Shown: in pieces, positions 20,193-42,000 of the stretch | How positions within the stretch are numbered: the stretch's first letter is position 1 | How the letters are laid out: the number at the start of each line of letters is the position of its first letter | Assembly (NCBI GenBank): GCA_050287085.1 | Contig: JBNKBE010000016.1 | Span: 86,541 to 150,540 of the forward strand | Direction of reading: 5' to 3' | Origin: Polyangiaceae bacterium | GTDB taxonomy: Bacteria > Myxococcota_A > Polyangia > Polyangiales > Polyangiaceae | DNA: 64,000 nt | Made by a program: the position numbers and the translations under genes | The notes under the pieces: model-generated | Told to the model about the DNA's origin: nothing | Seen by the model: only the letters and a program-made list of their open reading frames with translations | Database searches by the model: none

Positions 20193-20214
20193 GGCGAAGT
20201 TCTATGCTGCCGAT

Positions 20215-24383: not shown

Positions 24384-24668
24384 ACGCCGCGCTAATCCGG
24401 TTAATGTTGGACGTCGTTGCGTTTGGTCGCACCCGTTGGAGGTCCCCCGCCACCCATCTCGGCGATATCCACGTGCCCACATGGGACCATTGTGCCGAGG
24501 TCAGGGGTTCCCCGCAACGCAGGCGCTTCGGAAACGCCCTGACCAGGGCGGGATCGTGGGAGGACGGACCTGGGAACAACGCAATGACGACACTTGCGTC
24601 GGTCAGCTCGCCTGGGAGCGCAGTCGGATCGGTTGCTCCGGCTCTCTGGATTTGTTCTTCTCGGCCCA

Positions 24669-27533
24669 ATGACATACGCCGTATTGCGCAGCGCCGAGGC
24701 ACTGGTTCGCCATCTCGAAGCTGGACATCCCCTGGCTGGCTGTATTCTTCAGGGCCTGAATCTGACGGTGATAGCACCTACGTTGTTGGCTCGGGACGTA
24801 AGAGAGGCGGTCTTTCTAGGCTGTACGTTGACGGCTGAGCAACAAGCCCAGCTCACCGGTCGTGGGGCTCTCGTGTTTCCGGACTTGCGCAAAGGGCGCC
24901 CCTACAATCCCGCACGCGCCGATCTGTACACCTACGACGAGTTGATGCACGGGTTTTCGGCGAAGCATCCGGGTAGCGTGTTGGATACGTTGGATGCGCA
25001 CATCCATGCCCACTTCCAGCGGCATCGACGCTATGGGTCCCATCCCATCATTGAGACGTTGGCTCAGCGCCTACACGATCATGCGATCGATGAAGCCCTC
25101 GCTCGGCTCTTGGCACGACCTGAGGCTCAGCGGGTAGTGGGGGTAATGGGGGGCCACTCGCTGCTTCGCGGTAGTGCTCTGTACCAGCAGGTCGCACGAC
25201 TCGGGTATCAACTTGCGCGCTCTGGGTATCTCGTCGCAACGGGTGGAGGCCCCGGCGCCATGGAGGCCGCGAACCTGGGGGCTTGGATGTCATGTTATGA
25301 CGAAGTTGCGCTCGATACGGCCTTGGGGATTCTTGCGCGGGCAACGGACTACCATACCCATGACTACGTTGTTTGGGCTCTTTCCGCGCGCGCCGCGTTC
25401 CCAGAGGGAGCGCCTAGTCTCGCGATCCCTACCTGGTTCTACGGTCATGAGCCGAGCAATCCGTTTGCGTCGTACATAGCCAAGTATTTTTCCAACAGCC
25501 TGCGAGAGGACGGCTTGCTCGCGATAGCAAAACACGGCGTCGTCTACACGCCCGGCAGCGCTGGTACCATCCAGGAGGTGTTCATGGATGCCACGCAGAA
25601 CCACTACGGTACCTTTGACGTGGTAAGTCCGATGGTCTTCTTTGATGAGACCGAATGGAGTCGCTATCCCGTGTTGGAGCTATTGCAGAAGCTCGCCGGC
25701 GATCGCGCGTATGCTCGGACGATCTACCAGACGAGCCGCGTGGCGGAGGCGGTTGATTTCATTCGGTCTCACCCTCCCGAGCACTTCGACCCGAGTGAGT
25801 TCCTCGGTATCGTGCACGCCAGCGATCACGGCCCGGTCTACGCTGACGCTCTGAATGCTGTGCGCCGGCTCGAACCGACGGAGTCTGCAGCGGTGCCCCC
25901 GTTAGGAAGCTACGTCGTGGCACGCCCCTCGCCTAGCAATGTCTCGTCGGCGGAGCTGGTGCGGGTTCTTGCTCGCAGCGACTCTGGCCTCGCGGATCTG
26001 TATGAGTTGCTGGCTGCCAACGGACATACGCCCTGCTTCTCTACGGCAGTACGGAGGGAGGTCGAGGGCTGGCTCGCTAAGCCCGATATCGACGCGCCAG
26101 ACCTTCTGGACCTCGAGGCGCTCGCTTTTGTTACCGTGGATGGCGAGTCTAGCAAAGATCTAGATCAAGCCTTGTATTTGCGGAAGCGGGAGGGCGGCGG
26201 ACTGACTGTCTACTACGCGCTCGCTGACGCCAGTCACTACGTGCGTCCGGGGTCGGCACTGTTTGCAGAAGCGATGCACCGAGCCGCCAGCTACTACCTC
26301 CCGAGCGTCATGGTGCCGATGTTGCCAAGAGAGTTGTCTGAGGGGCTCGTGTCGTTGAACCCAGAGGTATCACGCCGCGCGGTCGTCTTCGAGATGCAAT
26401 TGGACGACATGGCGGAGGTTGTGAGCTCGCGCGTCCTGCGAGCACGCGTCCGCAGTCGTGCCAAATTGAGCTTCTCAGGCGTACAGGCCTACTACGATGA
26501 ACCGGACTCAAGCGATATTGTCGATCCGGCCATCAGGTGTAGCCTTGACTTGCTTAGGACTTTTGGTGAGCTCCGTCTGCGACGTTCCGGAGAACGCGAT
26601 ATCGTGCGCTATCGGCGCGTTGAGCTGCAAGTAGAGCTGCCGAATCGCAGTTGTCGCGGGTTCTTGGTAAACGAGGCGATCCGTCACCCGGTTGAGCGAT
26701 ACAATGAGCAGCTTTCGCTGCTATGCAACGAACAAGGTGCCACGCTGCTGCAGCGTGCGAGCCAGGATCCGCACGTAGAACCCATTTTTCGTGTGCACCC
26801 AGAGCCAGAGGCAAAAAGCTTCGAGGCATTTCGCTCGCTAACTGAGGCAGTGGCTGACGCGCACGGTTTGGATGCTCGCTGGCGCTGGCGCCGTGAACAG
26901 ACATTGGCCGACTACCTCGCAGCGCTTCCGGAGGAACCGCGCTCAGTGGCGCAGGCTCTACACCGTCAGGCAGTGATGGTGAACGTGGGTTCGGTCTTTC
27001 AGCAGGCACCCGGGGGCCACTACGGCGTCGGGGCGGACGTCTACGCGCGCTTCAGTGCTCCGATGCGTGAGATCGTCGGTGTGTATCTGCATCGGGAACT
27101 CGTCGAAGCGGTTACGGGGCAGACCCGCGCTGACGCGGAGCTTCGAGCCGAGGTGATCGAGCGCGCCAACGCAGCAAGACAACTACAGAGGCGGCTTACC
27201 AACGGTTCAAACCTTCTGGTACTAGATCAGATATTTCGAGGGGCACAGGTTGAGGATCGTACACTTTGCGCAACGATCGTGGGGCTGACAGAAAGCAAAG
27301 CCTATGTCACATTGTCTCCTCAGCCCGTGGACGCTAAGGTGCACCTGCGTGATCACAATCGCTCGGCCGGTGATACTTTGCGTTTGACTAGCGACCGTTG
27401 CGGGCTTGTTGATGAGGCCGGAACCCTTCGGTTTCGTTTGGGGGATGAGGTAGGTATTCGAGTCGTGGAACACGAATCCGCCAGCCACCACTGGCTGCTC
27501 GTGTTGCTGCCTGGTCCCCTTCATACGCAATAG
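24669..27533 (+). CDS. Fusion of LOG-family (SLOG) nucleotide hydrolase-like domain and RNB (RNase II/R) domain
   Basis: N-half: GVMGGH, TGGGPGAMEAANLGA, PTWFYGHEP, KYFSNSLREDGLL, PGSAGTIQE. C-half: FVTVDGESSKDLDQA, YALAD, YLPSVMVPMLPRELSEGLVSL, IFRVHPEP, YARFSAPMRE. Confidence 0.85.
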   Translation: MTYAVLRSAEALVRHLEAGHPLAGCILQGLNLTVIAPTLLARDVREAVFLGCTLTAEQQAQLTGRGALVFPDLRKGRPYNPARADLYTYDELMHGFSAKHPGSVLDTLDAHIHAHFQRHRRYGSHPIIETLAQRLHDHAIDEALARLLARPEAQRVVGVMGGHSLLRGSALYQQVARLGYQLARSGYLVATGGGPGAMEAANLGAWMSCYDEVALDTALGILARATDYHTHDYVVWALSARAAFPEGAPSLAIPTWFYGHEPSNPFASYIAKYFSNSLREDGLLAIAKHGVVYTPGSAGTIQEVFMDATQNHYGTFDVVSPMVFFDETEWSRYPVLELLQKLAGDRAYARTIYQTSRVAEAVDFIRSHPPEHFDPSEFLGIVHASDHGPVYADALNAVRRLEPTESAAVPPLGSYVVARPSPSNVSSAELVRVLARSDSGLADLYELLAANGHTPCFSTAVRREVEGWLAKPDIDAPDLLDLEALAFVTVDGESSKDLDQALYLRKREGGGLTVYYALADASHYVRPGSALFAEAMHRAASYYLPSVMVPMLPRELSEGLVSLNPEVSRRAVVFEMQLDDMAEVVSSRVLRARVRSRAKLSFSGVQAYYDEPDSSDIVDPAIRCSLDLLRTFGELRLRRSGERDIVRYRRVELQVELPNRSCRGFLVNEAIRHPVERYNEQLSLLCNEQGATLLQRASQDPHVEPIFRVHPEPEAKSFEAFRSLTEAVADAHGLDARWRWRREQTLADYLAALPEEPRSVAQALHRQAVMVNVGSVFQQAPGGHYGVGADVYARFSAPMREIVGVYLHRELVEAVTGQTRADAELRAEVIERANAARQLQRRLTNGSNLLVLDQIFRGAQVEDRTLCATIVGLTESKAYVTLSPQPVDAKVHLRDHNRSAGDTLRLTSDRCGLVDEAGTLRFRLGDEVGIRVVEHESASHHWLLVLLPGPLHTQ

Positions 27534-27799
27534 GTTGCCTGTCGACACAACATGAGGGGTCGTGTTCAGCGCTGCGGCGCATGGCCATCGCGCTGAATGC
27601 CCTGCGACTGTAGGAGAGAGTGCGACCACCCAGTTTGCGTCTAGGGGCTAGTCCCGTAGCACCATTCGCTGTGGGTCGCGCGGAGCGTATTTCGTTAAGT
27701 GCACGGTTTGCGAGTTTGTAGAGTGACATTGACTCCCAACTCGTAGACACTCCGCGTCGCCCGCTTCGGCGCGGCACTCATTATCACCACGGGAGGGAT

Positions 27800-29098
27800 A
27801 TGGAACCAGGAGCTCTAGAGGGCGGCTCCCGCCCCATTGGCACGTTGGATTTCCGCAAGCTCGTCCATCGAGAAATCGCGGATCTGGAAACGCTCCGAGC
27901 GCAGTTGCAGCTCGCCATTCAGCTTGAGATGTCGACGGTGCCAGCTTATCTAGTGGCACTTTACTCGATTGTGGACAAGAGCAGTGAGGCGTACCAGCTC
28001 ACCCGCAGCGTCGTAGTCGAGGAAATGCTGCATGTGAATGTGGCGGCTAACTTGTTGGTCGCCATTGGAGGGGTACCGTATTTCACGGGACCCTATAGCC
28101 CGAGCTACCCGACGTATCTCCCAGGGGCCAATCCGCAGCGCACGCCCTACATCGCTTTGCTGCCCGCATCGACTGCGCTCTATTCCGATGTGTTCATGGC
28201 GATTGAACGACCGGCGCCGTTCAAAGCGCCCGCACAAGGGGCTCGCTACGATTCGATCGCGCAGTTCTACAAGGCGATCGACGAAGGATTGGAGAACGTG
28301 GTCGAACGATACGGCCCCGCTGAGGTGTTCAAATCGCAGCCTGGCTATTGTCAGCGGACGGACTTCTACATCGGCAAGGGCGGCGGGCGGCCATTTCTGG
28401 TTCGCGATCTGAAGACAGCAAAGCTTGCCATCCTGGAGATCGTGCAACAAGGGGAAGGCGCGGTATCTATTGATGAGCCGCTGCAACCCGAGCAACACTG
28501 GGGAACCTACAACGCCTATGGGCAGCGGATCGACGGCACCTACGGACCGATACTCGGCAAACCGCGGGAGTTGGCTCACTACTTCAAGTTTCAGCGTATC
28601 GCCCAGGGACTTGCGCCGCTCGGAGCCGTTTATCCCTTGGTTTCCAATCCCGACGCGAGCTCCTACACGAATCCTCAGGCGAAGGAGCTTTCACGGCTAT
28701 TCGATCAAGCTTTTAGCGTGCTGCTAAAGGCGCTCGAACGTTCTTTCCGCGACGCGGACGGGGACGCCTATTTCAAGGTCACGCTGCCATTGATGCACGA
28801 GGCTCTTCCGACCTACGCGGGCGCGCTGATGCAGACGGCCGCGTTGAAAGAGGCCTCCTCTGCGGTAGGACCGAATGCGTTACCGGCCTTTCGCTACGTG
28901 CCTGAAGCCACGCTGAGTGCGCTGCTGGCGGCGACCCGGGCCAAGTCCGGCGTGGTCTCCGAGCCGTCGGCGAAGACCGCCTTCGCCGCCGCGGCATCAG
29001 CAGTCGAGCCTGCTGCTGGAGTCCCTGGCTTCGCATCACTTGTAGAACGGCTGGTTCTTGCCGAAGGCGTGTCGCGCACACACGACCTGTCTCTATAG
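27800..29098 (+). CDS. Ferritin-like (VioB/RebD-type domain) protein
   Basis: LQLAIQLEMSTVPAYLVALYSI, VVEEMLH..ANLLVAIGG, FMAIERP, SIAQFY, IVQQGEG, AHYFKF; SD GGGAGG upstream. Confidence 0.85.
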   Translation: MEPGALEGGSRPIGTLDFRKLVHREIADLETLRAQLQLAIQLEMSTVPAYLVALYSIVDKSSEAYQLTRSVVVEEMLHVNVAANLLVAIGGVPYFTGPYSPSYPTYLPGANPQRTPYIALLPASTALYSDVFMAIERPAPFKAPAQGARYDSIAQFYKAIDEGLENVVERYGPAEVFKSQPGYCQRTDFYIGKGGGRPFLVRDLKTAKLAILEIVQQGEGAVSIDEPLQPEQHWGTYNAYGQRIDGTYGPILGKPRELAHYFKFQRIAQGLAPLGAVYPLVSNPDASSYTNPQAKELSRLFDQAFSVLLKALERSFRDADGDAYFKVTLPLMHEALPTYAGALMQTAALKEASSAVGPNALPAFRYVPEATLSALLAATRAKSGVVSEPSAKTAFAAAASAVEPAAGVPGFASLVERLVLAEGVSRTHDLSL

Positions 29099-29123
29099 AT
29101 CTCTAGCTTGAACGGATGACATC

Positions 29124-30872
29124 ATGAGTGACAGCTACAAGGTATATCCGAGTATTGGCATTGCCCGGGTGGGCAACAGTCAGGACGCGTTCTATGTAGG
29201 ACCGGAATCAGCTGCAGCGCTGCCGACATTGCCCGACGGCAAGCCATTTGGACCTGAAGACTTTCGGGACGGCAGCGGGGATCTGAAGCGGCAGGCGGCG
29301 CGCTTTCGCGTCTACCGGACGAGAGCAGATGGCAGCGCCGAGGAGATTACACTCCAGACTCCTGGCGTGCTGGAAATCCGCTGGACGGTCCATCTGGCCA
29401 ACAAGAAGGCCGGTTGGTACGAATTTCAGACCAATAAGGGTGAACAGGGATACGCTTCGAATCATCCGCTTCGCAACGCAAGTGTTGCTAGCGATCAGCG
29501 GCACACGTTGTTCATCGACCCGGGGCCGCGGACGGTCGTAGCTAAGCCAGGTGGAGATGAGCGGGCCGAGTTTTCCAGGGGCACGATACCCAAGGACTAC
29601 CCTGGCAGCTTCCCGCCGCCAGATACCAAGCCGTTTAGCATCGATACGCTCGGTCAGCTCCGCTCGGAAAGTTCCGGCGCCTTGCTGGTGCTCGGAGGAC
29701 TAGGGCGCTCGGGATCTAGTCGCGCACCCGAGATCTCGAACTACGCAAACAACGACGACTGGTGGGATGACACGTCTGACGGTCCGGTGCAGGCGACGAT
29801 CGTGTTCAGTGACGGCCGTGAGGTAAGCGTGGAGCCGGCGTGGGTCCTAGTAACGCCGCCGGCGTATGCGCCTCAGATTCTGAACCTCGTCACCCTCTAC
29901 GACACGATCTTCGACGTTGCCGTTCGCAGTCTGGGTGCGCGCCCCGATTGGTACGAGAATGGACTGTGGAAGCGCGGTGCGGACGGATACAAGCCGAACT
30001 ACAGAACGGAAATACGTCCCATCCTGGAGCGGGGTGAACATTACCCGTGGGTGGCTGCCATTCCGCCCAAGGCGCATCGCTTCGACTATGAGCGCCTCGG
30101 CACTGCGGACCCCGCACTCGATGGATTTCGAAAGTACTACCTGGACGTCCTGCGCGGCCCGAACGAAGAGAACAATCTGATCTCGACCAAGGGTGCCACC
30201 ATGATGCCCTACCTGGCGGGCGATGATTGCATAGGTGCGACGGATAAGACGCAGTCGAAGTATCTGAAGCTAACGGATACCCAGTACTTTCTGCTTCAGC
30301 AGTGGGCAGACGGACACTTCGTGAACGAGCCGGCCGAGCCGAGGCATCCTGGGGAGATGTTGTCGCAGGGGGTCCTGGAGAACTGCGTGGGCGGCGCGTT
30401 TTCGCCAGGCATCGAAATGACGTGGGTGAGTCGCTACCCCGAGCTCTATTGCGAGCCCTTGCGCTTGCACATGGCGAAGGTCGTTCCAGCTCCGCTGAGC
30501 AACGGTCTCGACCTGAAGCGCGGTTTGGAGCCTGGGGACGTGACCAAGTTCATGGCGGTTCCCTGGCAGGCCGACTTCAACGAGTGCTCTGCTCAGCCGA
30601 TCGGAGAGCGCATTCTATGGTGGTGGCCCGCCCAGCGCCCAGCCATGGTGTACATCGAAGCGGCCCAGCCCAAGGATGGTCCGTCGCCGACGACTGGACA
30701 GCAGGTGCCATGGATTGGCACCGCCGACGACCAAAACGCTGACAACTACATCGCCTTTGCAAATGACCTGGAGATGGTAGAAAGCTGGGACCGCTTGGGG
30801 TTCGTTTACAACGTTGGTAGCGAAGCTGAGCCGCGCTTCATCGAGGTTGCCCGCACACTCAAGCGAGAATGA
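29124..30872 (+). CDS. lodA: LodA/GoxA-family CTQ-dependent amino-acid oxidase
   Basis: YPSIGIARVGNS, KRQAARFRVY, VHLANKKA, NNDDWWDDTSDGPV, CVGGAFSPGIE, PWQADFNEC (Asp and CTQ Cys), WWPAQRP (CTQ Trp). Confidence 0.93.
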   Translation: MSDSYKVYPSIGIARVGNSQDAFYVGPESAAALPTLPDGKPFGPEDFRDGSGDLKRQAARFRVYRTRADGSAEEITLQTPGVLEIRWTVHLANKKAGWYEFQTNKGEQGYASNHPLRNASVASDQRHTLFIDPGPRTVVAKPGGDERAEFSRGTIPKDYPGSFPPPDTKPFSIDTLGQLRSESSGALLVLGGLGRSGSSRAPEISNYANNDDWWDDTSDGPVQATIVFSDGREVSVEPAWVLVTPPAYAPQILNLVTLYDTIFDVAVRSLGARPDWYENGLWKRGADGYKPNYRTEIRPILERGEHYPWVAAIPPKAHRFDYERLGTADPALDGFRKYYLDVLRGPNEENNLISTKGATMMPYLAGDDCIGATDKTQSKYLKLTDTQYFLLQQWADGHFVNEPAEPRHPGEMLSQGVLENCVGGAFSPGIEMTWVSRYPELYCEPLRLHMAKVVPAPLSNGLDLKRGLEPGDVTKFMAVPWQADFNECSAQPIGERILWWWPAQRPAMVYIEAAQPKDGPSPTTGQQVPWIGTADDQNADNYIAFANDLEMVESWDRLGFVYNVGSEAEPRFIEVARTLKRE

Positions 30873-31981
30873 CGGAGCTGACCACTCAGGTCTTGGTCGT
30901 CGGCGCGGGACCTGCGGGTTGCGCTACTGCCCTATCCTTGCTGCGCGCGGGGATTTCCGAGGTCCTATTGGTATCGGCCGACGGATTCGAGCAGGGGGGC
31001 GCCGGCGACGGCGTTCCGCCACATTTCGGTGCGCTGCTCGAAGCTTTGGGTCTGGATGAGCCGCCGGAGGCTATCGACTGTCATGGCAGTTACGTGTGGT
31101 GGGGCAGCGAAGGGCTTCGCGTGGAAGACCATTGGTCTTCCATGCGCGGGCTGTCTCGGCATGTCGCTCGAGCGCAGTTTGATCCCTGGCTTCGCCGTCA
31201 AGTGGCGAAGCGCGGTGCGCAACTCCGCTGCGACAACAAGGTTGTAGCGGTAGAGAGTCGGAGGCGTGGTGGGTGGCTTGTCCAGATGCGAGACAAGACG
31301 GGCGAGTCCTTGCGGGTGGCCGCAAGCTTCGTCGTCGACGCTACCGGGCGACGAGCGTGGCTGGCGCGGCGACTTGGTGCGCGGCTGCACGGCCATGATC
31401 GTCTACTTGCGTCCTACTTGGAGTGTGGGTTGAGGCCGGGGCCACTGGCGCGCTACTCGCACCTCCAAGCAGCCCCCTTCGGCTACCTATATGCCGGAGC
31501 CCTACCGAAGGCACGAGTTCTGCTCAGCATCTTCTTCGATGCCGACGGTTTGCCGTCGGAGCTCAGCCCTTCTCGCGTTGCTGCTGCCAGTGAACTGATG
31601 AAGATCGCTGTGCGATACTGCCCGCACCTCGAGGCGCAGCTTCAGCCATTGCCCGTCTCGACGGTGCGGGTGCAATCTGCCCGTTCTCAACATCTCGACC
31701 GGTGCGGCGGCGAAAATTGGCTGGCCGTGGGAGATGCCGCCATGGCCTTCGATCCCCTGTCCGCCTCTGGTATCTACAATGCCATGGCAGATGGCTTGAC
31801 GGCGGGACTGGCCATCGCGCGTGCTGGGGTTCGGGGCATCGTTGTGAACGATGCCCAAGGGGAGCGGCTGGTATCGTGCTGGAAGCGCTATCAGATGGAG
31901 TTGCGACAACACTACCGAGCAGAGCGGCGCTGGCGCGCTCATCCCTTCTGGGCCCGACGGCATGAGACGGCGGCATGCTAG
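30869..31981 (+). CDS. lodB: LodB/GoxB-type FAD-dependent oxidoreductase (CTQ maturation)
   Basis: GAGPAG, FVVDATGR, WLAVGDAAMAFDPLSASGI, YRAERRW..PFWARR; ATGA overlap with lodA. Confidence 0.85.
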   Translation: MTELTTQVLVVGAGPAGCATALSLLRAGISEVLLVSADGFEQGGAGDGVPPHFGALLEALGLDEPPEAIDCHGSYVWWGSEGLRVEDHWSSMRGLSRHVARAQFDPWLRRQVAKRGAQLRCDNKVVAVESRRRGGWLVQMRDKTGESLRVAASFVVDATGRRAWLARRLGARLHGHDRLLASYLECGLRPGPLARYSHLQAAPFGYLYAGALPKARVLLSIFFDADGLPSELSPSRVAAASELMKIAVRYCPHLEAQLQPLPVSTVRVQSARSQHLDRCGGENWLAVGDAAMAFDPLSASGIYNAMADGLTAGLAIARAGVRGIVVNDAQGERLVSCWKRYQMELRQHYRAERRWRAHPFWARRHETAAC

Positions 31982-33453
31982 ACGTCAGTGCGGCGAAGTT
32001 GCCTGAACTGCGAGACGTTCGCGCCGTCATCGGTGGAGAGTTGGCGACGGCCGCGGAAGGGGGCCGCTACCTAGTTACGAGTCCAGTAACAGGGAAAGGT
32101 TGGACGGAGGTGCCTGACTGCACCGCAGTCGACGTGGACCGTGCGGTGCGAGCCGCGTCGCGCTGGGTGAGGCAGAATTCGGTTCCCTTGGCACCGAAGG
32201 ACCGCGCGGGGCTATTGTTCAAACTCGCGGCTTTGATGGAGCGCGACGGCGAACTGCTCGCGTGTCTGGAGACTTTCGACAGTGGTAAGACTATCAGTGC
32301 GACCCGCGGAATTGACGTTCCCGCAGCAATCGCATGCGTTCGCTTCTACGCGGAGCTAGTGGACAAGGTGTTCGATCGGATTGCCCCGGCCGCCAGTGGC
32401 ACGCTGCCGTGTATCCGCCGCTATCCGGTCGGCGTGGTGGCGGCCATCCTGCCGTGGAACTACCCACTCTTGATGGCAGTCTGGAAGCTTGCGCCAGCCC
32501 TTGCCGCGGGTAACGCGGTCATTCTCAAACCCTCCCCCAATACGCCGCTTACCACGCTCTGGCTCGCGCAATTGGCGCTGGAAGCAGGAGCTGGCCCAGG
32601 TCAGGTACAGGCCGTCTCGGGGCGTTCGGCGGCGCTGGGTGAAGCGCTTGGAGCTCACTCGGGTGTGCACATGATCGCCCTGACTGGCTCCACGGCTACG
32701 GCGAAGCACTTCTACGCCTATGCGGCCCGCAGCTCTCTCAAAAAGCTGAGTTTGGAGTGCGGGGGCAAGAGCCCTCACGTCGTGCTCGCCAGCTGTGACC
32801 AGCTACCAGAAGCGGCCCGCGCTGTGGCGCGAGGCGTGTTTGCCAATCAGGGCGCGGTATGCAATGCCGGCTCCCGGTTGATCGTTGAGCGCTCGATAGC
32901 CGATTCCTTCTTGCATTTGGTGCTAGAGGAAGCCCAGCGCTTTCAACCAAGGGATCCGCGTACTCCGGGTGAGGGCAACGGTGCACTGATCGACGAGACC
33001 CATGCGATCACGATTGAACGCCAGCTGAGGCTGGCGCGAGCCCAGGGTGCGCAGGTTTTGGCAGGAGGCGAACGAACTCTCCAGACGCTGGGGGGAGCCT
33101 ACCTCACCCCGGCGATCGTCACGAACGTCGACCACGAGGCGACGATCGCTCGCGAAGAGGTATTCGGACCAGTGCTAAGTGTCATCTGTGCTGACGACCC
33201 CGAGCACGCCTTGCAGTTGGCCAATGACACAGACTTTGGTCTGGCCGCTGCGGTGTGGACAGCGGAGCTGCGCACGGCCCATACCTTTGCCGAGCGACTG
33301 AAGGCCGGAATCGTTTGGGTCAACTGCTTCGACAGAGGGGCGATGGCGATGCCCTTTGGCGGCTGGTTCGAGTCTGGGTTCGATGCCGACAAGGGCATCG
33401 AGGCTTTCGACAAGTACTGTCGTACCAAGGCCGTGTGGGTGAACTATGCCTGA
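31975..33453 (+). CDS. Aldehyde dehydrogenase (PuuC/aminoaldehyde-DH-like)
   Basis: PWNYP, TGST, LECGGKSP, NQGAVCNAGSR (catalytic Cys), EEVFGPV. Confidence 0.93.
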   Translation: MLDVSAAKLPELRDVRAVIGGELATAAEGGRYLVTSPVTGKGWTEVPDCTAVDVDRAVRAASRWVRQNSVPLAPKDRAGLLFKLAALMERDGELLACLETFDSGKTISATRGIDVPAAIACVRFYAELVDKVFDRIAPAASGTLPCIRRYPVGVVAAILPWNYPLLMAVWKLAPALAAGNAVILKPSPNTPLTTLWLAQLALEAGAGPGQVQAVSGRSAALGEALGAHSGVHMIALTGSTATAKHFYAYAARSSLKKLSLECGGKSPHVVLASCDQLPEAARAVARGVFANQGAVCNAGSRLIVERSIADSFLHLVLEEAQRFQPRDPRTPGEGNGALIDETHAITIERQLRLARAQGAQVLAGGERTLQTLGGAYLTPAIVTNVDHEATIAREEVFGPVLSVICADDPEHALQLANDTDFGLAAAVWTAELRTAHTFAERLKAGIVWVNCFDRGAMAMPFGGWFESGFDADKGIEAFDKYCRTKAVWVNYA

Positions 33454-34726
33454 ACGGCTGGGGCCCTTTCGCGTCACAGAACTTCTGGAGGCAGCGAAAC
33501 ACTTTGGAACGCCCCTCTTCGCCTATGACGTTGGGACTGTGGAGGCCAACTACCGGAGCTTGCGCGCAGCCATTCCGGAGCGGGTGGCGATTCACTATGC
33601 ACTCAAGGCTAACGGTAGCGCCGCGCTGCTCCAGATTCTCAGGCGCTGCGGAGCCAACGTAGATGTCGCCTCGCCTGGTGAGCTGCACCTGGCTAGGCTG
33701 CTTGGCTTTGCTTCCGATGAGGTTGTGTACACAGCGGCGGGGCGAAGCGACTCGGAGATAGAGTTTGCGCTCGACCCTGCGGTTGGCTTGCTGGTCATTG
33801 AAGCGTTGGACGAGGCAGAGGCACTTTCCCGATTGGCTCAGGAGCGTGGACTTGTTCAGGATATCTTGCTGCGAGTGCGTTTGCCGGTGGTCGAGGATGC
33901 GGACGGAATGCTCATCGTTCAGAAGCGGTCCAAGTTCGGTGTTCGTCCCGAGGAGTTGCTGCACGTAGTCACCAGACTTCAGCTTTTGCCTGGGATCCGG
34001 TTGCGCGGGCTGCACGCCAATCAGCACACCGCCTGTTTGGACGAGCGGGTTCACGAACGCGTGTATCATTCTCTCATGGACGAAGCGCTTGGGCTCCTGG
34101 CGCGTTCAGTGGCCATCGACACTGTCGACTTCGGGGGTGGGTTGGGGGTTTCCTACGGCCAGGAGCCAGGCCTGGATCTTCAGATGATTGGCCGCGCTCT
34201 CACACGGCAAGTCGAGCGCGCGCCTCGAGGTTGGCGCTTTCTAATCGAACCGGGTCGTTTCCTCGTCGCGAACGCCGGTGCATACGTCTTTCGAGTGCTG
34301 TCCGCGAAGCGGGAGGCCTCTCGGCAGGTACTCGTCACAGAGGGCGGAATTCACCAGCTATTTCGCCTAGGCCTTCGCGATAAGAATAAGCTGCTGCAAG
34401 TGCTTAGTCCGGCGGGTCACGAGTTAATAGCCTCCAGTGTTTGGGGGCCTCTGCTGTCGTCGGATGACGAGCTCGTGTCCGACATGCCGCTGCCCGAACT
34501 GGAGCGCGGGGCGTTATTGGCGATTCCGAACTGCGGCGCATATGCGTTCAGCCATAGCCTGAGCAGGTTCTGCTACTACCCAACGCCGGTAGAGCTTCTG
34601 CGTTGCCATGAGAGCTGGCACTGCGTACGTGAAAGAGGCTGCTCTGACGATGTCGTGCAAGGGCAGCACTGGCATCAACAGGATCGCCCACTCGCCTTTG
34701 GCACGTCAGGAAGGAGCAAATCGTGA
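33446..34726 (+). CDS. Group IV (alanine-racemase fold) PLP-dependent decarboxylase, LysA-like but atypical
   Basis: FGTPLFAYD, HYALKAN (PLP Lys), DVASPGEL, SKFG, DFGGG, EPGRFLV, GAY. Confidence 0.85.
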   Translation: MPERLGPFRVTELLEAAKHFGTPLFAYDVGTVEANYRSLRAAIPERVAIHYALKANGSAALLQILRRCGANVDVASPGELHLARLLGFASDEVVYTAAGRSDSEIEFALDPAVGLLVIEALDEAEALSRLAQERGLVQDILLRVRLPVVEDADGMLIVQKRSKFGVRPEELLHVVTRLQLLPGIRLRGLHANQHTACLDERVHERVYHSLMDEALGLLARSVAIDTVDFGGGLGVSYGQEPGLDLQMIGRALTRQVERAPRGWRFLIEPGRFLVANAGAYVFRVLSAKREASRQVLVTEGGIHQLFRLGLRDKNKLLQVLSPAGHELIASSVWGPLLSSDDELVSDMPLPELERGALLAIPNCGAYAFSHSLSRFCYYPTPVELLRCHESWHCVRERGCSDDVVQGQHWHQQDRPLAFGTSGRSKS

Positions 34727-35661
34727 AAGTGGTGTTTTTCGGATTTCAGACGTGGGGGTACGAAAGTCTGCGCCCACTACTCACCCATCCGCATCATCAA
34801 GTGAGTCTGGTGGTTACCCACCCGGAAAGCTCACATCCATACGAATGCATTTGGAACGACTCGGTGGCGGAGTTGGCTCGCGGCCGCGACATCGAAGTGG
34901 TCACCGCACGCGAGGGGGATGAGCCTGCGGTACTAGCCGCGCTGGCCAGGCATCCCGCGGACGTTCTGCTCGCCTCCGACTGGCGCTCGCACCTTTCGAC
35001 CCGAGTCTTGAGCCACTTCCCCCGCGGCGGGATAAACGTGCACGACGGCTTGTTGCCTCGCTACGGCGGCTTTGCTCCCATCAATTGGGCCATTGCCAAT
35101 GGTGAACCAGAGATCGGGGTGACGGCGCACGAGATCAGCGACGGCTTCGACCTCGGTCCCATCATCGTTCAGAGACGGCTAAGCGTGGGTCCGGACGAGA
35201 CCGCCACGCAGGTAGCACGAAGAGTATTCGGCGTTTGCAGGGAGATCTGTGTGGACGCATTGCAGTGCATCGATAGGACAGACTTCAGACCTCGGCCGCA
35301 GGATGCCGCCGAGGCTACGTTCTTCCACAAACGCGGCGAGCGCGAAGGGCGCATCGACTGGACGTGGCCTGCTCGGCGCGTCTACGACTTGATTCGAGCC
35401 CAATCGGATCCCTATCCAAACGCGCACGCTCGCTATCGTGGTAGGCGCTTGCTCGTCAAGCGAGCTCAGTTTCCGACACGCGCGTATTGCGGAACGCCGG
35501 GCAGAGTGCTGCAGCGTTCGCAAGCTGGCGCGCTGGTGCTGTGTGGCAAGGGGCGCGATACTCACAACCAGGGATTGTGGTTGACTGAGGTTCAAGCTTC
35601 AGAAGGCGGCGTTGCCGTCCCAGCGACACATCTACTGCAGCCTGGCAGCCACCTTGACTAG
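34723..35661 (+). CDS. N10-formyl-THF-dependent N-formyltransferase, CchA/FxbA-type
   Basis: MKVVFFGFQTWG, VVTHP..YECIWNDSVAELA, NVHDGLLPRYGGFAP, TFFHKR, LIRAQSDPYPNA, GTPGR. From recall, these match hydroxyornithine formyltransferases better than Fmt. Confidence 0.85.
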   Translation: MKVVFFGFQTWGYESLRPLLTHPHHQVSLVVTHPESSHPYECIWNDSVAELARGRDIEVVTAREGDEPAVLAALARHPADVLLASDWRSHLSTRVLSHFPRGGINVHDGLLPRYGGFAPINWAIANGEPEIGVTAHEISDGFDLGPIIVQRRLSVGPDETATQVARRVFGVCREICVDALQCIDRTDFRPRPQDAAEATFFHKRGEREGRIDWTWPARRVYDLIRAQSDPYPNAHARYRGRRLLVKRAQFPTRAYCGTPGRVLQRSQAGALVLCGKGRDTHNQGLWLTEVQASEGGVAVPATHLLQPGSHLD

Positions 35662-35703
35662 TCGGGGACAGCAAATATCCGTCGCAAGGGAAGAGGAGCA
35701 TCT

Positions 35704-36897
35704 ATGAAAATCGTTCTAGCCTACTCGGGAGGGCTCGACACCTCGGTCGCGCTCCGCTGGCTGCAGCAAAAGTACGAAGCGGACGTCATTGCCTATTGCG
35801 TCAATCTTGGTCAGCTTGATGATCTGAGGGTGGTTGAGCGGCGAGCTCGCGCCATTGGAGCCGCAGAGGTTGTCATCGACGACAAGCGGGGAACCTACCT
35901 CAGAGAGTTTGCTTTCCCGGCGCTCCGCGCGTCTGCTCGCTACGAGGGGCGGTACCTGATGGCGGCACCTCTAGGTCGACCATTGATCGCGCGGGGGCTG
36001 GTCGAGACCGCTCATCGCTTCGGGTGTGAAGCTGTGGCCCACGGATCTACAGGCAAGGGCAATGACCAGGTGCGCTTCTACACCGGGGTTGTGGCGCACG
36101 ACCCCACGCTGAGGGTATTGGCCCCGTGCATGGAGTGGGAGCTTGGCTCCCGACAGGAGGAACTGCAGTTCGCGGAGGCACATGGCATCGAAGTGGACGC
36201 AAGCCCGCGCGCGCCGTATAGCAAGGACGGCAGCCTATGGGGTTCCAGTACCGAGTGCGGTATGCTGGACGATCCGAATCAAGCCCCTACGCCAGACGTC
36301 TTTCAGATGACGGCGGATCCGCACACGGCACCCTCGGAGGGTCAACATATCAGCGTTGGCTTTCGCCGAGGTCTACCGATATCGGTGAACGGCCGTGAGT
36401 TGGAGCCGATAGAACTCGTATTGACCCTGAATGAGCTCGCAGGGCGACACGGCATCGGCCGGGTGGACATCGTGGAAGACAGCCTTCTAGGTTACAAGTC
36501 GAGGGCGATATACGAAAGCCCTGGCGCTACCCTGCTGCACTTCGCCCATCGTGAGCTGGAAAGCTTATGTGTCGAACGAGACGCATTGCGCTTCAAGCAG
36601 CGTGTCGCAGATCGCTACGCGGAGCTAGTCTATGAGGGTAAGTGGTTCTCGCCCCTACGAGAAGCTCTGGACGGATTCGTCGACGTCACGCAACGCTCGG
36701 TTAACGGTGAGGTTGAGATGCTAGTGCGCGGTGGTCACATCAAAGTAGTAGGGAGACGCAGCACGACCTCATTGCTACGTCCAGAGCTGGTCACGCACGA
36801 CGGCACCGATGAGTTCGAGCACGGACTGGCCGAGGGCTTTTCCTACGTGTGGTCGATGCCCGAACGAATTCGCGCAAAGAATCGGCGCGGCGTCTAG
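35704..36897 (+). CDS. argG: Argininosuccinate synthase family ATP-dependent ligase (divergent, possible paralogue)
   Basis: IVLAYSGGLDTS, HGSTGKGNDQVRF, GRHGIGRVD, KSRAIYESPG, YEGKWFSP; SD GAGGAG. Confidence 0.85.
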   Translation: MKIVLAYSGGLDTSVALRWLQQKYEADVIAYCVNLGQLDDLRVVERRARAIGAAEVVIDDKRGTYLREFAFPALRASARYEGRYLMAAPLGRPLIARGLVETAHRFGCEAVAHGSTGKGNDQVRFYTGVVAHDPTLRVLAPCMEWELGSRQEELQFAEAHGIEVDASPRAPYSKDGSLWGSSTECGMLDDPNQAPTPDVFQMTADPHTAPSEGQHISVGFRRGLPISVNGRELEPIELVLTLNELAGRHGIGRVDIVEDSLLGYKSRAIYESPGATLLHFAHRELESLCVERDALRFKQRVADRYAELVYEGKWFSPLREALDGFVDVTQRSVNGEVEMLVRGGHIKVVGRRSTTSLLRPELVTHDGTDEFEHGLAEGFSYVWSMPERIRAKNRRGV

Positions 36898-37311
36898 CCA
36901 CCGCGTGCCAGCGGGACCCGGGGGACTCGCCCGAACCCGGCTGTCGCGGCGGAGCAGCCCTAGCGCATTTGTGTCATACGAAGTCGCTTCGATCCGGGGG
37001 CGAAGCGTGGTCCGGATGTGCATCGTGACGTGTGAAGGTCCACCTGAGGCCAGCCTGCGCTGAGTGTTTCACCGGTGCCGGGACGTGTCTCGTGTCTTTC
37101 GGCATCCGCAGTCGGATTCCCCTATATGGGCGTCCTCGGTTCCTGATAGATAGAGGCCGGCGGTGAAGTAGGTCACCAGGCTTGTAGGTACTTGCAGGTC
37201 CGCCCGGCAGATTCGCCAACCCCAGCGTGTGACTGCGCCTCGGCGATGGTCACAGTGGCGGAACGGCAAAGCTGCGCGCTTTTCCGAAAACAGGATTAGT
37301 CGTGGTGCAAA

Positions 37312-38325
37312 ATGAACCGTAAGCGCATGCAGGGCGAGTTCACCCATGGCGGACGCCGACGGCTGCCGCCCCGCCTCAGCCAGAATGAGGCTGCTCTTCC
37401 CGCGGCGCACCCACCTGACGCTTCCCGGTTCTCTCATTCGGCCTGGGCGCGGGCTAGAAGGCTAGGAGAACAGTACCACGCTCAATGGGTCTTGCTCACG
37501 CTCGTATCCGGAGCGACTGCATGTGTGGTCGCAACGAGCGTCTTCTATCATGAGCGGATCTTCTGGTTGGCACTCGTCTTCTGCTGTTCCTTTATTGCCG
37601 GAGTGTATCTACTCAATTGGCTACTGGAGACAACCCACGACTTCATCAACAGTCCGTCTCGTCTACAAGTCGTCAAGCACAAGGCGATGTACTGGGGCTT
37701 GGCCTGCTCTTGCTACGTTCTGAGTCTGGTAGTCGTTGTCTCTAGAGGAAGAGTTAACCTGGCTCTGATATTTCTCTTTGCGATGAGCGTCATGTATTCG
37801 ACCCCGTCGCTGCCCGTTGTGCGAAAGGGGACGTTGGTCTTTCTGCGACTCAAGGATGTGACCTTTCTGAAGAGCTTACTGGTCGCGTTGTGCTTTCCTT
37901 TGCTTAGTTTTGAAAGCGTACGGCTCTTCACATCCGCCAACATGATGGAAGCTCCGGGAATCCTCTGGTTCTATGCGGGCTTTGCGATAACTACATTTCT
38001 TGCGACGGTTTACGACGACATGCTCGACATTCCGGGTGACACTGAAGCAGGAGTTGTTACTTTGCCCATTCTGTTGGGGGCAGCGAATACGCGGCGCTTT
38101 CTTGTGGGCACCACCGCGATGTGGGTGTCGGTTATCGCCTTCTTCTACGGTCAGGGTATGATTGTTCACCGACATCTTCTGCCTTTGCTGCTGCAGGCGG
38201 CATTTCCCCTGACCTGGCCCGCGATACACCGAGCCTGGCCCAAGTCGCGGCTTGCGCTCGATGTTTCCATCGAAGGGGTCTTCTGGATGACGGCCTTGGC
38301 GTTGGTGCTGTCCGGCGGCGGATGA
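37312..38325 (+). CDS. UbiA-family membrane prenyltransferase
   Basis: Multi-TM; YSTP..RLKD..LKSLLVA and DDMLDIPGDTEAGVVTLPILLG. Start uncertain. Confidence 0.8.
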   Translation: MNRKRMQGEFTHGGRRRLPPRLSQNEAALPAAHPPDASRFSHSAWARARRLGEQYHAQWVLLTLVSGATACVVATSVFYHERIFWLALVFCCSFIAGVYLLNWLLETTHDFINSPSRLQVVKHKAMYWGLACSCYVLSLVVVVSRGRVNLALIFLFAMSVMYSTPSLPVVRKGTLVFLRLKDVTFLKSLLVALCFPLLSFESVRLFTSANMMEAPGILWFYAGFAITTFLATVYDDMLDIPGDTEAGVVTLPILLGAANTRRFLVGTTAMWVSVIAFFYGQGMIVHRHLLPLLLQAAFPLTWPAIHRAWPKSRLALDVSIEGVFWMTALALVLSGGG

Positions 38326-39032
38326 GCTCCGAGCCCGCTCGGTAGCCGATGTCCAGAGCCACGCGGTCGGAGGAAGCGGCATGCGCCAAGCGACATGGCC
38401 AAGGCGTTGCTGTCGTAGGTTGGCGTCGCTGTCGCCAACTTCCCCACTTGCTACGTGGGACCCATGGTAGTTGTTGTCAGGAGAGCAGCATGCGGTCGCG
38501 CAGCGACTTGTGGCGTAGGGCGAGAGCTTTCCGGCCATCGACGGGCGCGGAGGCGGGGAAACTCTGTCAGAAGGTTGCTCACTTCGCGTACGACGTTCGG
38601 GGCCGGGTCCAAACTGGACCACAGTCTCGTCTTGCGCCAGCCCCGCGGCGAGATTTCTTTGGTCGCGAGTGACCGGTTTTCGTCCTAGAAATGAGCGTGA
38701 AAGAGGCGACGCCCTTGAGCGGCCGGCTCTCGTGCAATTGGGGAGAAGACGAGACCTAAGTTGCGGATAAGTTGGAAAAATGGTCTAGGGCGTCAGTTGT
38801 GGTAGAGGGCCTGGTGAGGCTGCGGGAGAGGTAAGCGATAGCCGGCTGATGGCTGGGCGCGGAGACGCCTGCGGTGTGTGTCCTACATTCCGGAGTTGAA
38901 CCAGCTCCAGAAATGCGAGCATGCGTTCGCCATGGGTCCCCGCGGCAGTGGTGAAAGTTTGTGGCCTGGGTACTGGCGGGGTGGTAGCACACTGCTCTGG
39001 GTGCAGTGCCGCATCCCATTGTGGGGGTCCAG

Positions 39033-42000
39033 ATGAATAGACGTTCGAATGCTTTAGCGTGCTGCAGCACGCTACTGTTGCTCATATCTTGTTCAGGACG
39101 GATCGAGGGACCGTCCCCCGCGTTGCTCTCCGAGGAGGAGGGCGAGTCCTTGGCGACGACCATCGTGTGTCGCGACCAGCTTAGCACGGAGGTCGTGGTC
39201 AGCGGCGACGGCTTCTCCCCGATTCCGGTCAACATTCCCAATGGCCCCAAGGTTGCTTTGCCCAGCATCACGCTGTCGCGCACATCCGAGCTCAATGGGG
39301 ACCCGGTAGACACGCCGGTAGATGTACTGTTCAGCGGCACGCCCGACGATCGCACCAACATCAAGTGGCTCACCTGGCAGAGCCAGAAGCAGATGACGTT
39401 CACGGTAAACCAGTCGCTGTCCGTGGATGGGGACTCTTCCGTTTTGCCAGAAGGGATCCACGACATCCTGGTTAGAAATCCAGATGATGAGAAGACCCAG
39501 CAGACGGGCGTACTTGCCGTCGTGAGCAAGCCAGTGCTTGAAGCGCCCTCGCCCTCGATTACATGCCTAGCGCAAGGTGCGCGGGAGCTTACGCTCAACG
39601 GCGCCACGTTTCTCGACATCGACGGTGACCTCGTCGGCTTCGAGGTAGCGGGCGAGGCCACCCCCTTTGTTCCCAGTGCCCTGAGAAACTGTACGAAAAT
39701 CGCTCGCACTGGTCTCAACGCTCGTACGTGCGAATCGGCGACCGTGACGCTCGGCAAGGATTCCGTGGCGACCGGCTATCATCGCGTCAACGTGCACAAT
39801 CCGGAAACGGCAGCTTGTCGCAGCGAAGAGGAGATCCTTCTCCGTGTTGTCCCACCGCCGTCAATCAGCCGCGTGGTGCCCCCTCTTGCCTGCGTGGCCG
39901 AGAGTGAGCGCATGTTCACTATTGAAGGCAAAGACTATCTCGAGATCGACGGTGCCCTGCCATCACTCACGGTTGGGGGTACCGCATTTGACGTGCTGAC
40001 CGCCTCGGGATGCAAGACGCTTCCGACGATGGGCCACAGTGTTCGCCGCTGTACGGAGCTCTCCTTCACGGTGCCTCAGGATGGGCTGCCGGTGGGGCAG
40101 CCCGAAGTGGTGGTCACCAATCCGGATCCTGCGGGCTGCGAGGCCTCGAACGCGGTGGCTTTGACCATTGTACCACCTCCGAGCATCGAGGAGGTGGTTC
40201 CGGATGCGATCTGCCTCGATGAGAGCATGCGTTCGGTCGAAGTGAATGGCGAAGGCTTCCTGGAAGTAGATGGTGTGGTCCCTGCGGTGCTTGTGGCGGA
40301 CGTCGAGTTGCTAGCGAGCGCCGTTTCGGTGTCGGGTTGTGAGACGATCCCCGTCGATGGCATGAAGGTCCGTCGCTGCGACACCTTGCGGCTGTCCATT
40401 CCGAAGAACGCGCTTGACCCGACGGTGGCCGACATATGGGTTACCAACCCGCAGCCTGCCGGGTGTTCTGACTTAGCGCCAGACGCGTTGGCCATCTTGG
40501 GAGCACCGGAAGTGCTGTCGGCTGCGCCGCCCTTGATCTGTACCGACGACGTGGAGCGTCAGCTGGTCTTGTCGGGCGTCGACTTTGTCAGGGTGGGTGA
40601 CACGTTTCCCACGGTTACCATCGACGGCAGAGACGTTAACGTAGATGCGGCAGACGGATGCAGGGACGTCCCAGTGGCGGGTGGCGGTCTACAGTCGTGC
40701 GACACGCTGACCGTCACCGTGCCAAAGGGCGCACTCTCCGCCGGTCAGAACGACGTCCGGGTTTCCAACCCAGAGCCGGTGGGGTGTTCGGGAGATGCGG
40801 CTGTGTTGACCACGCCGCCCACTGTCACATTGACGTCAGCAGAGCCTGGCAACGTGTGCACGACCAGTGGAGCGCTGAGCGTGAGCTTCACGGGCACCGG
40901 TTTCCTCAGGGTTGACGGTAACGACTTCAGCGTATTCGTCGAAGGGACCGAGGTCGTGCCCACGGCGATTACCGGATGCAACTCGCTCGAAGTCGCGGGA
41001 ATGGACGTGAAAAGCTGCACCGGCTTCCAAATTCCTTTCGAGCCGAGCGGCATGTCGGTCGGCGACGTGGAGGTCGTGGTCAGCAACCCAGCGCCGAGCA
41101 GCTGCGAGGTCTCGGCCTCCAACGTATTCCGGCTCGTCGGGCCGCCGACGATTGCGGCGGTCGTTCCGAGCAACGTCTGTTCCGATGTGAGCACGACTCT
41201 GGCACTGACGGGCACAGGATTCGTTCCCGGAGCCATGGTACTGGCGGGCGGCGTCGCCGCTGACGCGGTGGTTGTCACCAGCGCAACGTCGCTCGAAGCT
41301 ACTTGGGATTCCGGGCTTGCTGCCGGCACCCACGATGTGACGGTGAACAACGATGCGGGCGGCACGTGCGCTACGACCGTGAGCCGCGCACTAGTGGTCG
41401 ATCCGACGCCTCTGGTCTTCTTCGTGGATCCACCGGTGCTCTACAACGGGATCCAAGTCGGTGCGACCATCTTCACGAGCGGATTGTCGGCGTTGGCGCA
41501 GTCGGTGGACCTGGTGGATTCGACGGGCAACTCCACCCCGGTCGTCAGCTTTGATAGTCCTGACCGGCCCAATCGCATTCAGGCCGAAATACCCGCAGGG
41601 CTCGTGGCGGGTGACTACGAAGTTCGCGTGACCAGTCAGCTTGGATGCGTGGGCGGCTTGCCCGGAGCGGTCACAGTGACTGATGCGCTGACGCTTGACC
41701 TCAGCTCGATCGATCCCAGCTACGTTTCGTCGACCAAAGATACCGCGGTGACGCTCGCTGCGACCAGTCCCCCGGCGGCAGACAAGGTTGGATTCGCGTC
41801 CACGCCTCGCATCTACCTCGACCCGACCGGCAGCAACACGTTGGCGACCGCTATGCGCGCCGTGGTCTACCAGTCGGGCGAACAGCTGAGCGCGGTGGTA
41901 CCGAGCGGGCTCGCCGCCGGTTCGTACAACGTCATTGTCGTCAATCCGAACGGCGAGGTGGGTGTGCTCGCGGACGGGCTGACCATCACGGCGACGGAGC

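Follow-up and report, generated by a model that had tools for sequence, protein, structure and literature searches.

A LodA-type quinoprotein oxidase clustered with a decarboxylase, a formyltransferase and a paralogue of argininosuccinate synthase: a candidate specialised-metabolism cluster in a Polyangiaceae bacterium

The DNA considered here is a stretch of 64,000 nucleotides from the genome of a Polyangiaceae bacterium (GenBank assembly GCA_050287085.1, contig JBNKBE010000016.1, positions 86,541 to 150,540 of the forward strand), called the window below. At 27800-36897 it carries a block of seven genes that includes a LodA-like oxidase with a predicted cysteine tryptophylquinone (CTQ) cofactor. 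Judged by gene content and conservation, this block probably represents, in this genome, a conserved cluster of specialised metabolism that makes a nitrogen-rich small molecule. The recurrent core of the cluster, as delimited by comparison of loci, is a set of five genes for a LodA-type oxidase, a LodB maturase, a fold-III pyridoxal phosphate (PLP) decarboxylase (DC), a formyltransferase (FT) and the block's argininosuccinate synthase paralogue (ArgG*). The two further genes of the block code for a ferritin-like protein (Fer) and an aldehyde dehydrogenase (ALDH). It is very likely that the cluster is a real, conserved functional unit with a neofunctionalised ArgG. A conserved core operon combined with the formamidine chemistry set out below is, with moderate confidence, the best overall explanation, while the chemistry as drawn is tentative.

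The ORF (open reading frame) listing of the window places all seven co-directional genes on the + strand exactly where the original prediction had put them, and the family assigned to each agrees with Pfam and NCBIfam. Fer (27800..29098, 432 aa; PF12902, E 1.4e-42) is followed by the LodA-like CTQ oxidase (29124..30872, 582 aa; LodA_N and LodA_C), the LodB-like flavin adenine dinucleotide (FAD) flavoprotein (30869..31981, 370 aa; NF038171, 195.5 bits) and the NAD(P)-dependent ALDH (31975..33453, 492 aa; PF00171, E 6.5e-142). DC (33446..34726, 426 aa; fold-III PLP decarboxylase domains), FT (34723..35661, 312 aa, GTG start; Formyl_trans_N and Formyl_trans_C) and ArgG* (35704..36897, 397 aa; argininosuccinate synthase domains) complete the block. 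The four overlaps of stop and start codons and the two short gaps first reported for the junctions were all reproduced: lodA and lodB overlap by 4 nt (30869-30872), lodB and the ALDH gene by 7 nt (31975-31981), ALDH and DC by 8 nt (33446-33453) and DC and FT by 4 nt (34723-34726), with gaps of 25 nt between Fer and lodA and 42 nt between FT and ArgG*. Because of these overlaps and short gaps, and because the sole + strand terminator-like site within the block is a weak one at 34220, the seven genes are by their layout one tightly coupled operon. Terminator-like sites in the region number 4 in total against 8.9 expected. The operon is presumed to be driven from the 266-bp intergenic region upstream (27534..27799, +), and a Shine-Dalgarno-like GGGAGGG lies just 5' of the first ATG, that of the Fer gene. 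A sigma-70 consensus scan of 27300-38600 gave 0 promoter-like sites compared with 2.6 expected in shuffles. On the other side, 414 bp separate ArgG* from the next gene, coding for a UbiA-family prenyltransferase. The GC content of the block (0.60-0.62) is no different from that of the window.

ArgG* exceeds both equivalog cut-offs for argininosuccinate synthase (NF001770, 496.1 against 334 bits; TIGR00032, 434.1 against 268.2) and matches true ArgG at E 1.7e-110. The PP-loop motif AYSGGLDTS is found at residues 6-14, and the GKGNDQVRF motif is also present. The protein, first described as 'argG-like', scores as a bona fide ArgG but is a member of a separate clade of paralogues in which two otherwise invariant residues have changed. 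In a tree of 130 ArgG sequences rooted on the genome's second copy (C4), the clade is monophyletic, comprises 52 leaves with a support of 0.965 and holds all 7 full-length cluster-linked ArgGs, and sister-clade paralogues branch outside it. Relatives of ArgG* at 53-63% identity exist according to a protein database search. The signature of the sub-clade is A88, Y126, G176, S177, T183, S260 and A268; relative to canonical ArgG, this includes the replacements N177S, R260S, T88A, E126Y and I183T. In terms of motifs, YLMAAPLGRP replaces the canonical LGT..RP, RFY replaces RFE/D, DGS[LI]WG[TS]STECG replaces DxN[LI]W..S[IY]E, and E-x-S replaces E-N-R. Positions 177 and 260 (Thermus numbering) are occupied by N and R in all 46 canonical ArgGs compared; both are serine in the window ArgG* and in 44 of 74 sequences of the A88/Y126 type.

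For human ASS1, the available text of PMC13289927 gives Y87, N123, R127, S189, E191, E270 and Y282 as citrulline contacts and T119, N123 and D124 as aspartate contacts. It further implicates R157 in aspartate recruitment and describes R272C as an amorphic active-site variant. When this numbering is carried over to the window protein by motif position, without direct alignment to 2NZ2, the contact residues are found to be kept in ArgG* (Y84, T116, N120, D121, R124, S182, E184, E258 and Y270), R157 corresponds to the conserved R150, and R272 corresponds to S260. In the wider group containing the ArgG* sub-clade, T116, N120, D121 and R150 are conserved in 67-74 of the 74 sequences. Because all the mapped contact residues are conserved while S260 replaces the R272 counterpart, the machinery for adenylation and aspartate ligation looks intact, with part of the pocket changed. 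It may be guessed that the loss of R260 reflects a substrate without an alpha-carboxylate.

These residues bear directly on an explanation by precursor supply. According to this, ArgG* would be an ordinary argininosuccinate synthase, perhaps a feedback-insensitive one, duplicated to feed arginine, and DC, FT and LodA would act on arginine or agmatine. The margins above the ArgG equivalog cut-offs, the conservation of every citrulline, aspartate and ATP contact listed for ASS1 in the available text, and the 45-47% identity of ArgG* to housekeeping ArgGs of the same order would all suit such a role. It is nevertheless unlikely, since N177 and R260 are both replaced by serine in a monophyletic clade, and the human variant at the counterpart of R260, as placed by motif position, is amorphic. 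In addition, argF, argH and car are not co-duplicated, and FT would be left without a role.

A conserved cluster with an altered ArgG is favoured by its recurrence in other lineages. The third of the ArgG* motifs given above was back-translated to a degenerate DNA pattern and run over a metagenome collection; the 11 loci obtained were queried by tblastn with the window proteins. ArgG* was found in 10 of these loci, DC in 8, FT, LodA and LodB in 6 each, and Fer in 1. Where some of the core genes are missing, the contig is short (1.0-3.1 kb) and ends before them. L119, which has no ArgG, was discarded as a false pattern match. On the basis of nucleotide identity the loci were assigned to five lineages, each with its own arrangement. 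Lineage A (L109, L111, L112) has ArgG* divergent from DC-FT-LodA-LodB, and lineage B (L115, L117, L118) has LodA and a flavin amine oxidase divergent from ArgG*-DC. LodB-LodA-Fer is divergent from ArgG* in lineage C (L110), with DC-FT located 6 kb further. The order is LodB-DC-FT-ArgG* in lineage D (L113) and DC-FT-ArgG*-LodA-LodB in lineage E (L116). FT directly follows DC in every lineage showing both genes, and translational coupling occurs in L113 as well as in the window block. The flanks are housekeeping genes unrelated to one another, with recBCD and a Na/Pi transporter in lineage A and histidine kinases in lineage E, and the core can therefore be delimited to five genes.

Thus, of the four genes downstream of lodAB that the original prediction had drawn into one pathway, DC, FT and ArgG* are syntenic with lodAB elsewhere, in five lineages, and ALDH is not. 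A functional tie of the oxidase/maturase pair to DC, FT and ArgG* is supported by comparative evidence, because these genes stand together in five other lineages, in which their order varies and the flanking genes are unrelated. In the LodA tree the cluster LodAs are spread over three or more separate branches, so the DC-FT-ArgG* trio has been joined repeatedly to different LodAB pairs. Neither the canonical C4 argG locus nor two Streptosporangiaceae sister-clade ArgG loci, taken as controls, have DC, FT or LodA nearby. The Streptosporangiaceae paralogues (54% identity, 2 of 201 genomes) had been considered as candidates and were rejected, having no ALDH nearby either and lying outside the signature clade. 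Another candidate, an ArgG fragment of 54% identity from a Thermoanaerobaculia genome, turned out to come from a canonical gene divided between two contigs.

Carriers of the core appear to include cultivable members of the Pseudomonas resinovorans group. Lineage-A DC shares 88% identity with a protein of Pseudomonas sp. BN417 and 99.8% with one from a compost metagenome, and the matches of lineage-A ArgG* are named from Metapseudomonas boanensis and Pseudomonas resinovorans; these ArgG* matches and the one DC match come from different species of the Pseudomonas group. Common sources of ArgG* and DC matches are Salsipaludibacter albus, one contig of 2,190,202 bp and a compost metagenome. A 696-aa flavin amine oxidase (PF01593; L117, 366-2456, -) is encoded between lodA and ArgG* in lineage B and represents a second amine-oxidising enzyme. 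The lineage C contig has a second quinoprotein set (L110, 9424-15969, -) made up of a ferritin-like protein, a very distant LodA_C-containing protein, a radical SAM enzyme and a LodB-like flavoprotein.

The decarboxylase of the block is not LysA, as its score against the lysA equivalog (226.4 bits) is under the cut-off of 297.9 and a true lysA is present elsewhere. Its PLP lysine is K54. Among 5.8 billion proteins, the best matches of DC are only 37-39% identical to it, and the top database matches are themselves the DCs of this cluster from the other lineages, with 81-99.8% identity to those of L110, L109 and L112. The motifs KAN, GGGxGV and ExGR are kept in the cluster homologues with alignment coverage (7, 6 and 6 rows, respectively). 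In a plasmid collection searched with DC, all matches are at most 33% identical and no similar cluster was found. The best solved relative is BtrK (2J66, E 3.7e-49), the L-glutamyl-[BtrI acyl-carrier protein] decarboxylase of butirosin synthesis. The diaminopimelate decarboxylases (LysA) match from E 1e-42, and DC has the fold-III PLP motifs in common with both. Unlike the setting of BtrK, the cluster contains neither a carrier protein nor an ATP-grasp gene.

By its domains and scores, FT is an N10-formyltetrahydrofolate-type formyltransferase with an Fmt-like C-terminal domain and is not Fmt: it reaches 132.5 bits against the fmt equivalog, below the cut-off of 201.5, and a true fmt lies elsewhere. 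The closest solved relative is the formyltransferase domain of ArnA. The N-x-H and D motifs, which we take to be the catalytic ones of the superfamily, are present, and the motifs N-x-H-D-x-LLP and DLGD are kept in the cluster homologues.

A housekeeping role of DC, FT and ArgG* was rejected, and with it the possibility raised at the outset that they are the only lysA, fmt and argG copies of the genome. The genome (96.8% complete, 160 contigs) has a separate lysA (C12, 404.5 bits), a separate fmt (C6, 254.4 bits) and a second argG (C4, 322.7 bits, above the cut-off), as well as a single argH outside the block. When the seven proteins were compared with the whole genome by tblastn, only distant paralogues with 27-33% identity were found. 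In 40 related genomes, DC has no relative above 34% identity and LodA no full-length relative above 41%; the argG of same-genus genomes is of the C4 type and 31-34% identical to ArgG*. The best ArgG of the order is 47% identical, and none reached E <=1e-125 among 400 further genomes of the phylum. Because separate housekeeping copies exist and close homologues are missing from the relatives, the block is, by this comparison, an accessory, laterally acquired set. Only the upstream RNB gene is held in common with same-genus genomes, and the genus is a divergent one (50-59% amino-acid identity). Synteny with such divergent relatives is too eroded to place the borders of the island.

The oxidase matches both LodA domains (PF17990, of the LodA_N/LodA_C pair, E 3.6e-70; PF18417, E 3.3e-39) and belongs to a large family with 54-62% identity to it, found in Azospirillum, Chromobacterium, Burkholderia, Halomonas, cyanobacteria, actinobacteria and others. 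It scores below the NCBIfam equivalog cut-offs of both LodA (395.9 against 600 bits) and GoxA (225.7 against 750), so its substrate is not fixed as lysine or glycine. The predicted CTQ residues are C488 and W501, with D484. C488 and D484 align with high posterior probability to C516 and D512 of Marinomonas LodA, and W501 is paired with W581 through the shared WWP.Q motif (WWWPAQRP compared with WW(581)PPQ) in a low-scoring segment. D484, C488, W500 and W501 are kept in 75 of 75 LodA homologues. There is no extension at the N-terminus, since residue 6 pairs with residue 4 of the solved LodA chain 3WEU. The LodB-like flavoprotein matches NF038171 (maturase_LodB) across its full length at the score given above, below the cut-off of 400 bits, and is presumed from family and position to be the CTQ maturase of the adjoining oxidase.

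The reference systems are LodA/LodB (L-lysine epsilon-oxidase) and GoxA/GoxB (glycine oxidase) of Marinomonas mediterranea, both two-gene operons. The block has the same LodA_N/LodA_C pair, the Cys, Trp and Asp of the CTQ site and a LodB-type gene directly downstream. It differs in the spacing from Cys to Trp, which is 13 residues in the window LodA and 65 in Marinomonas LodA, and in that lodAB is embedded in a multi-enzyme operon, whereas LodAB and GoxAB are stand-alone pairs. The closest named relatives of the window LodA include Chromobacterium proteins (55-56% identity). The available text of the 2015 LodA survey places a Chromobacterium violaceum protein in LodA-like group IC and reports that it generates H2O2 without lysine oxidation (PMC4417212). 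In the same text, fungi are the only organisms for which ferritin-like neighbours are mentioned, and neither a decarboxylase nor a formyltransferase or ArgG is named as a neighbour of LodA.

The neighbourhoods of the closest LodA relatives were surveyed in 80 genome loci with 10-kb flanks. A lodB-like gene lies 3' of lodA in most of them, and Fer lies directly upstream of lodA in 43. Fer, LodA and LodB are, by this count, a widespread triad in their own right that normally occurs without the other genes of the block. Fer is better assigned to this wider triad than to the conserved core. In 28 Fer sequences E43, E74, E75, H78, E136, E219 and H260 are invariant and E257 nearly so. With two ExxH motifs (E75-x-x-H78 and E257-x-x-H260) and further invariant Glu residues, Fer is a probable two-metal carboxylate protein. 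The sole solved relative is CC_0557 of Caulobacter vibrioides (3HL1), an uncharacterised structural genomics target matched at E 1e-10 by sequence and at E 3.5e-09 by Foldseek with a template modelling (TM) score of 0.76 on the target; its gene presumably neighbours a LodA-like gene of Caulobacter. Matches to Mn-catalase and Dps folds were not significant in the fold search (Mn-catalase probability <=0.14). The Fer model has a predicted local distance difference test (pLDDT) value of 76.9. Residues ~370-432 form a window-specific, Ala/Ser-rich C-terminal extension of about 60 residues that is modelled at low confidence, and 0 of the 39 long Fer matches listed extend beyond residue 369.

ALDH is a full-length match to PF00171 (473.7 bits over residues 28-487). 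It most resembles the aminoaldehyde dehydrogenases PuuC, ABALDH and BADH and reaches no equivalog cut-off, including that of PuuC (462.7 bits against 850). By tblastn it has matches in 0 of the 11 metagenome loci, and by this criterion it is a window-specific addition to the cluster. Because of its absence there, the order originally suggested, from the oxidase through aldehyde dehydrogenase, decarboxylase and formyltransferase to the ligase, does not represent conserved logic. A different ALDH (33-35% identity) is encoded immediately upstream of lodA in 4 of the 80 surveyed loci (L039, L068, L069, L072), an adjacency that fits oxidation of an aldehyde made by LodA.

The same genes could be read as catabolic. 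DC, LodA and ALDH would then degrade a basic amino acid or diamine for ammonia as a means of nitrogen scavenging, with a side role for FT and ArgG*. LodA and ALDH would make a plausible route from amine to acid, the trios of ALDH, LodA and LodB just mentioned are in line with it, and so is the resemblance of ALDH to PuuC and the aminobutyraldehyde dehydrogenases. However, ALDH is outside the conserved core, ATP-dependent ligation of aspartate and N-formylation are anabolic reactions, and no transporter or catabolic regulator is conserved across the lineages. A catabolic role is therefore quite improbable.

For the biosynthetic cluster favoured here, the following tentative scheme may be drawn. 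DC would decarboxylate a basic amino acid to an amine or diamine, and FT would formylate one of the amino groups to give an N-formyl amine. ArgG* would adenylate the formamide carbonyl, in the manner of the ureido carbonyl of citrulline, and condense it with aspartate to a succino-formamidine. A housekeeping lyase of the ArgH type would then remove fumarate, leaving a formamidine, that is, a guanidine-like group. The remaining primary amine would be oxidised by LodA to an aldehyde with release of NH3 and H2O2, and in the present genome ALDH would carry the aldehyde to a carboxylic acid. The pathway would yield a small aldehyde or acid with an amidine group, analogous to agmatine or 4-guanidinobutyrate. 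This scheme is proposed because enzymes of the FT family formylate amines, ArgG* is the sole carbonyl activator of the core, FT always comes after DC, and LodA-type enzymes oxidise primary CH2-NH2 groups. Lineage E has its genes in an order that is colinear with the scheme. Speculatively, the five-gene core may thus be a pathway free of nonribosomal peptide synthetases (NRPS) and polyketide synthases (PKS) in which a CTQ quinoprotein oxidase has its first use in biosynthetic tailoring, ArgG* acts after FT to turn an N-formyl amine into a formamidine (an isonitrile being less likely), and the product is an arginine- or agmatine-like antimetabolite or a signal aldehyde.

Two known systems resemble this scheme. 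ArgG/ArgH and PurC/PurB use aspartate as a nitrogen donor in an ATP-dependent ligation that is followed by elimination of fumarate; ArgG* keeps the ArgG motifs, and the ArgH of the genome could complete the transfer. The ArgG* genes are linked to a formyltransferase and to no carbamoyltransferase. In the purine pathway, glycinamide ribonucleotide (GAR) is formylated to FGAR by the formyltransferase PurN, and FGAR is converted to FGAM by ATP-dependent amidine formation (PurL). Here, too, a formyltransferase of the PurN/Fmt/ArnA superfamily would be combined with an ATP-dependent enzyme that turns a carbonyl into an amidine; the enzymes and the substrate differ, and the likeness is one of analogy only.

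A different use of the formyl group would be its dehydration, with ArgG* adenylating it and eliminating AMP without aspartate to give an isonitrile or, by analogy, a nitrile. Solved 'nitrile synthetases' of the ArgG fold (9LEI, 9LEH) do match ArgG* at E ~1e-25, and two invariant canonical ArgG residues are lost in it. Moreover, a 2026 preprint deals with a cluster for ribosomally synthesised and post-translationally modified peptides that makes C-terminal nitriles, and the phrase 'argininosuccinate synthetase-like' appears once in its text (PMC13060819). On the other hand, T116, N120, D121 and R150, linked to aspartate by the partial ASS1 source, are conserved in nearly all the sequences of the wider group, and ArgG* is much nearer to true ArgG than to the nitrile synthetases, so that dehydration is very improbable.

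Several observations weigh against a conserved pathway ending in a formamidine. ALDH and Fer are, on the comparison of loci, outside the conserved core, and the exact seven-gene unit is known only from the present genome. DC, FT and ArgG occur in 0 of the 80 loci around LodA relatives, and most proteins of this LodA family therefore work without them. ArgG* passes the equivalog cut-offs and keeps each contact residue, and on this evidence it could be an ordinary ArgG. The structural roles of the canonical N177 and R260 were not found in the literature, and the link from R260S to a decarboxylated substrate is a guess. Furthermore, no lyase, exporter or resistance gene is conserved across the cluster lineages, and the order of steps is ambiguous, as FT and LodA would both act on primary amines. 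The only public sequencing run that holds the block is listed as DNA.

Chance juxtaposition of an H2O2-producing Fer-LodA-LodB cassette and unrelated metabolic genes of no common pathway, as might be read from the 43 of 80 loci with the triad alone, the 0 of 80 with DC, FT or ArgG and the uniqueness of the seven-gene set, is scarcely credible, given that the combination recurs, rearranged, in five further lineages with three LodA lineages and that its genes are translationally coupled in the window and in L113. The cluster is instead regarded as a functional unit. Its component families are known; new are their conserved combination and the altered ArgG. The original prediction held that no cluster with this gene set had been described, and indeed full-text literature searches, which did not cover MIBiG, found no published description of the gene combination or of the ArgG* clade.

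Other features of the window were also recorded. Upstream of the block, a 979-aa ORF (24594-27533, +) has a SLOG/LDcluster4 (TIGR00730/PpnN-like) N-terminal half fused to an RNB domain of the RNase II/R type. Its halves match separate stretches in seven same-genus genomes (49-58% identity), which are adjacent on opposite strands in six of these genomes and on different contigs in the seventh. By this comparison, the window seems to carry an inversion and an in-frame fusion at this ORF. Homologues of the UbiA-family prenyltransferase downstream (37312-38325, +) are missing from 17 same-genus genomes and from the other cluster loci. Its gene may have come in together with the island but lies outside the conserved core. 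Further downstream, a 1573-aa protein with a 'choice-of-anchor Z' PGGG repeat and TIG and Kelch motifs (39006-43727, +) is probably surface-located or secreted. A DabB/DabA-type inorganic-carbon transporter pair (15453-19474, +; Proton_antipo_M and DabA, E 1.7e-171) is flanked by genes of LysR regulators at 14462-15358 and 20110-21147. Proteins of the DUF1552 family (HXXSHH) are encoded at 2096-3493 (+) and 10731-13966 (-), and the second of them is paired with a multi-domain PSD/PSCyt protein (DUF1585, DUF1587, DUF1588, DUF1592, DUF1595). Such pairs are typical of Planctomycetota-like genomes.

The widespread Fer-LodA-LodB triad gives many LodA systems a conserved two-metal partner, which may bear on cofactor maturation or peroxide handling. 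To our knowledge, the LodA/GoxA enzymes characterised to date all act as stand-alone oxidases, and their main value lies in the H2O2 they release. If the present interpretation is true, the cluster would provide the first pathway role for the LodA/GoxA family. It would also assign a new function to a clade of ArgG paralogues that is automatically annotated as ordinary argininosuccinate synthase, and would point to a nitrogen-rich metabolite made without NRPS or PKS enzymes.

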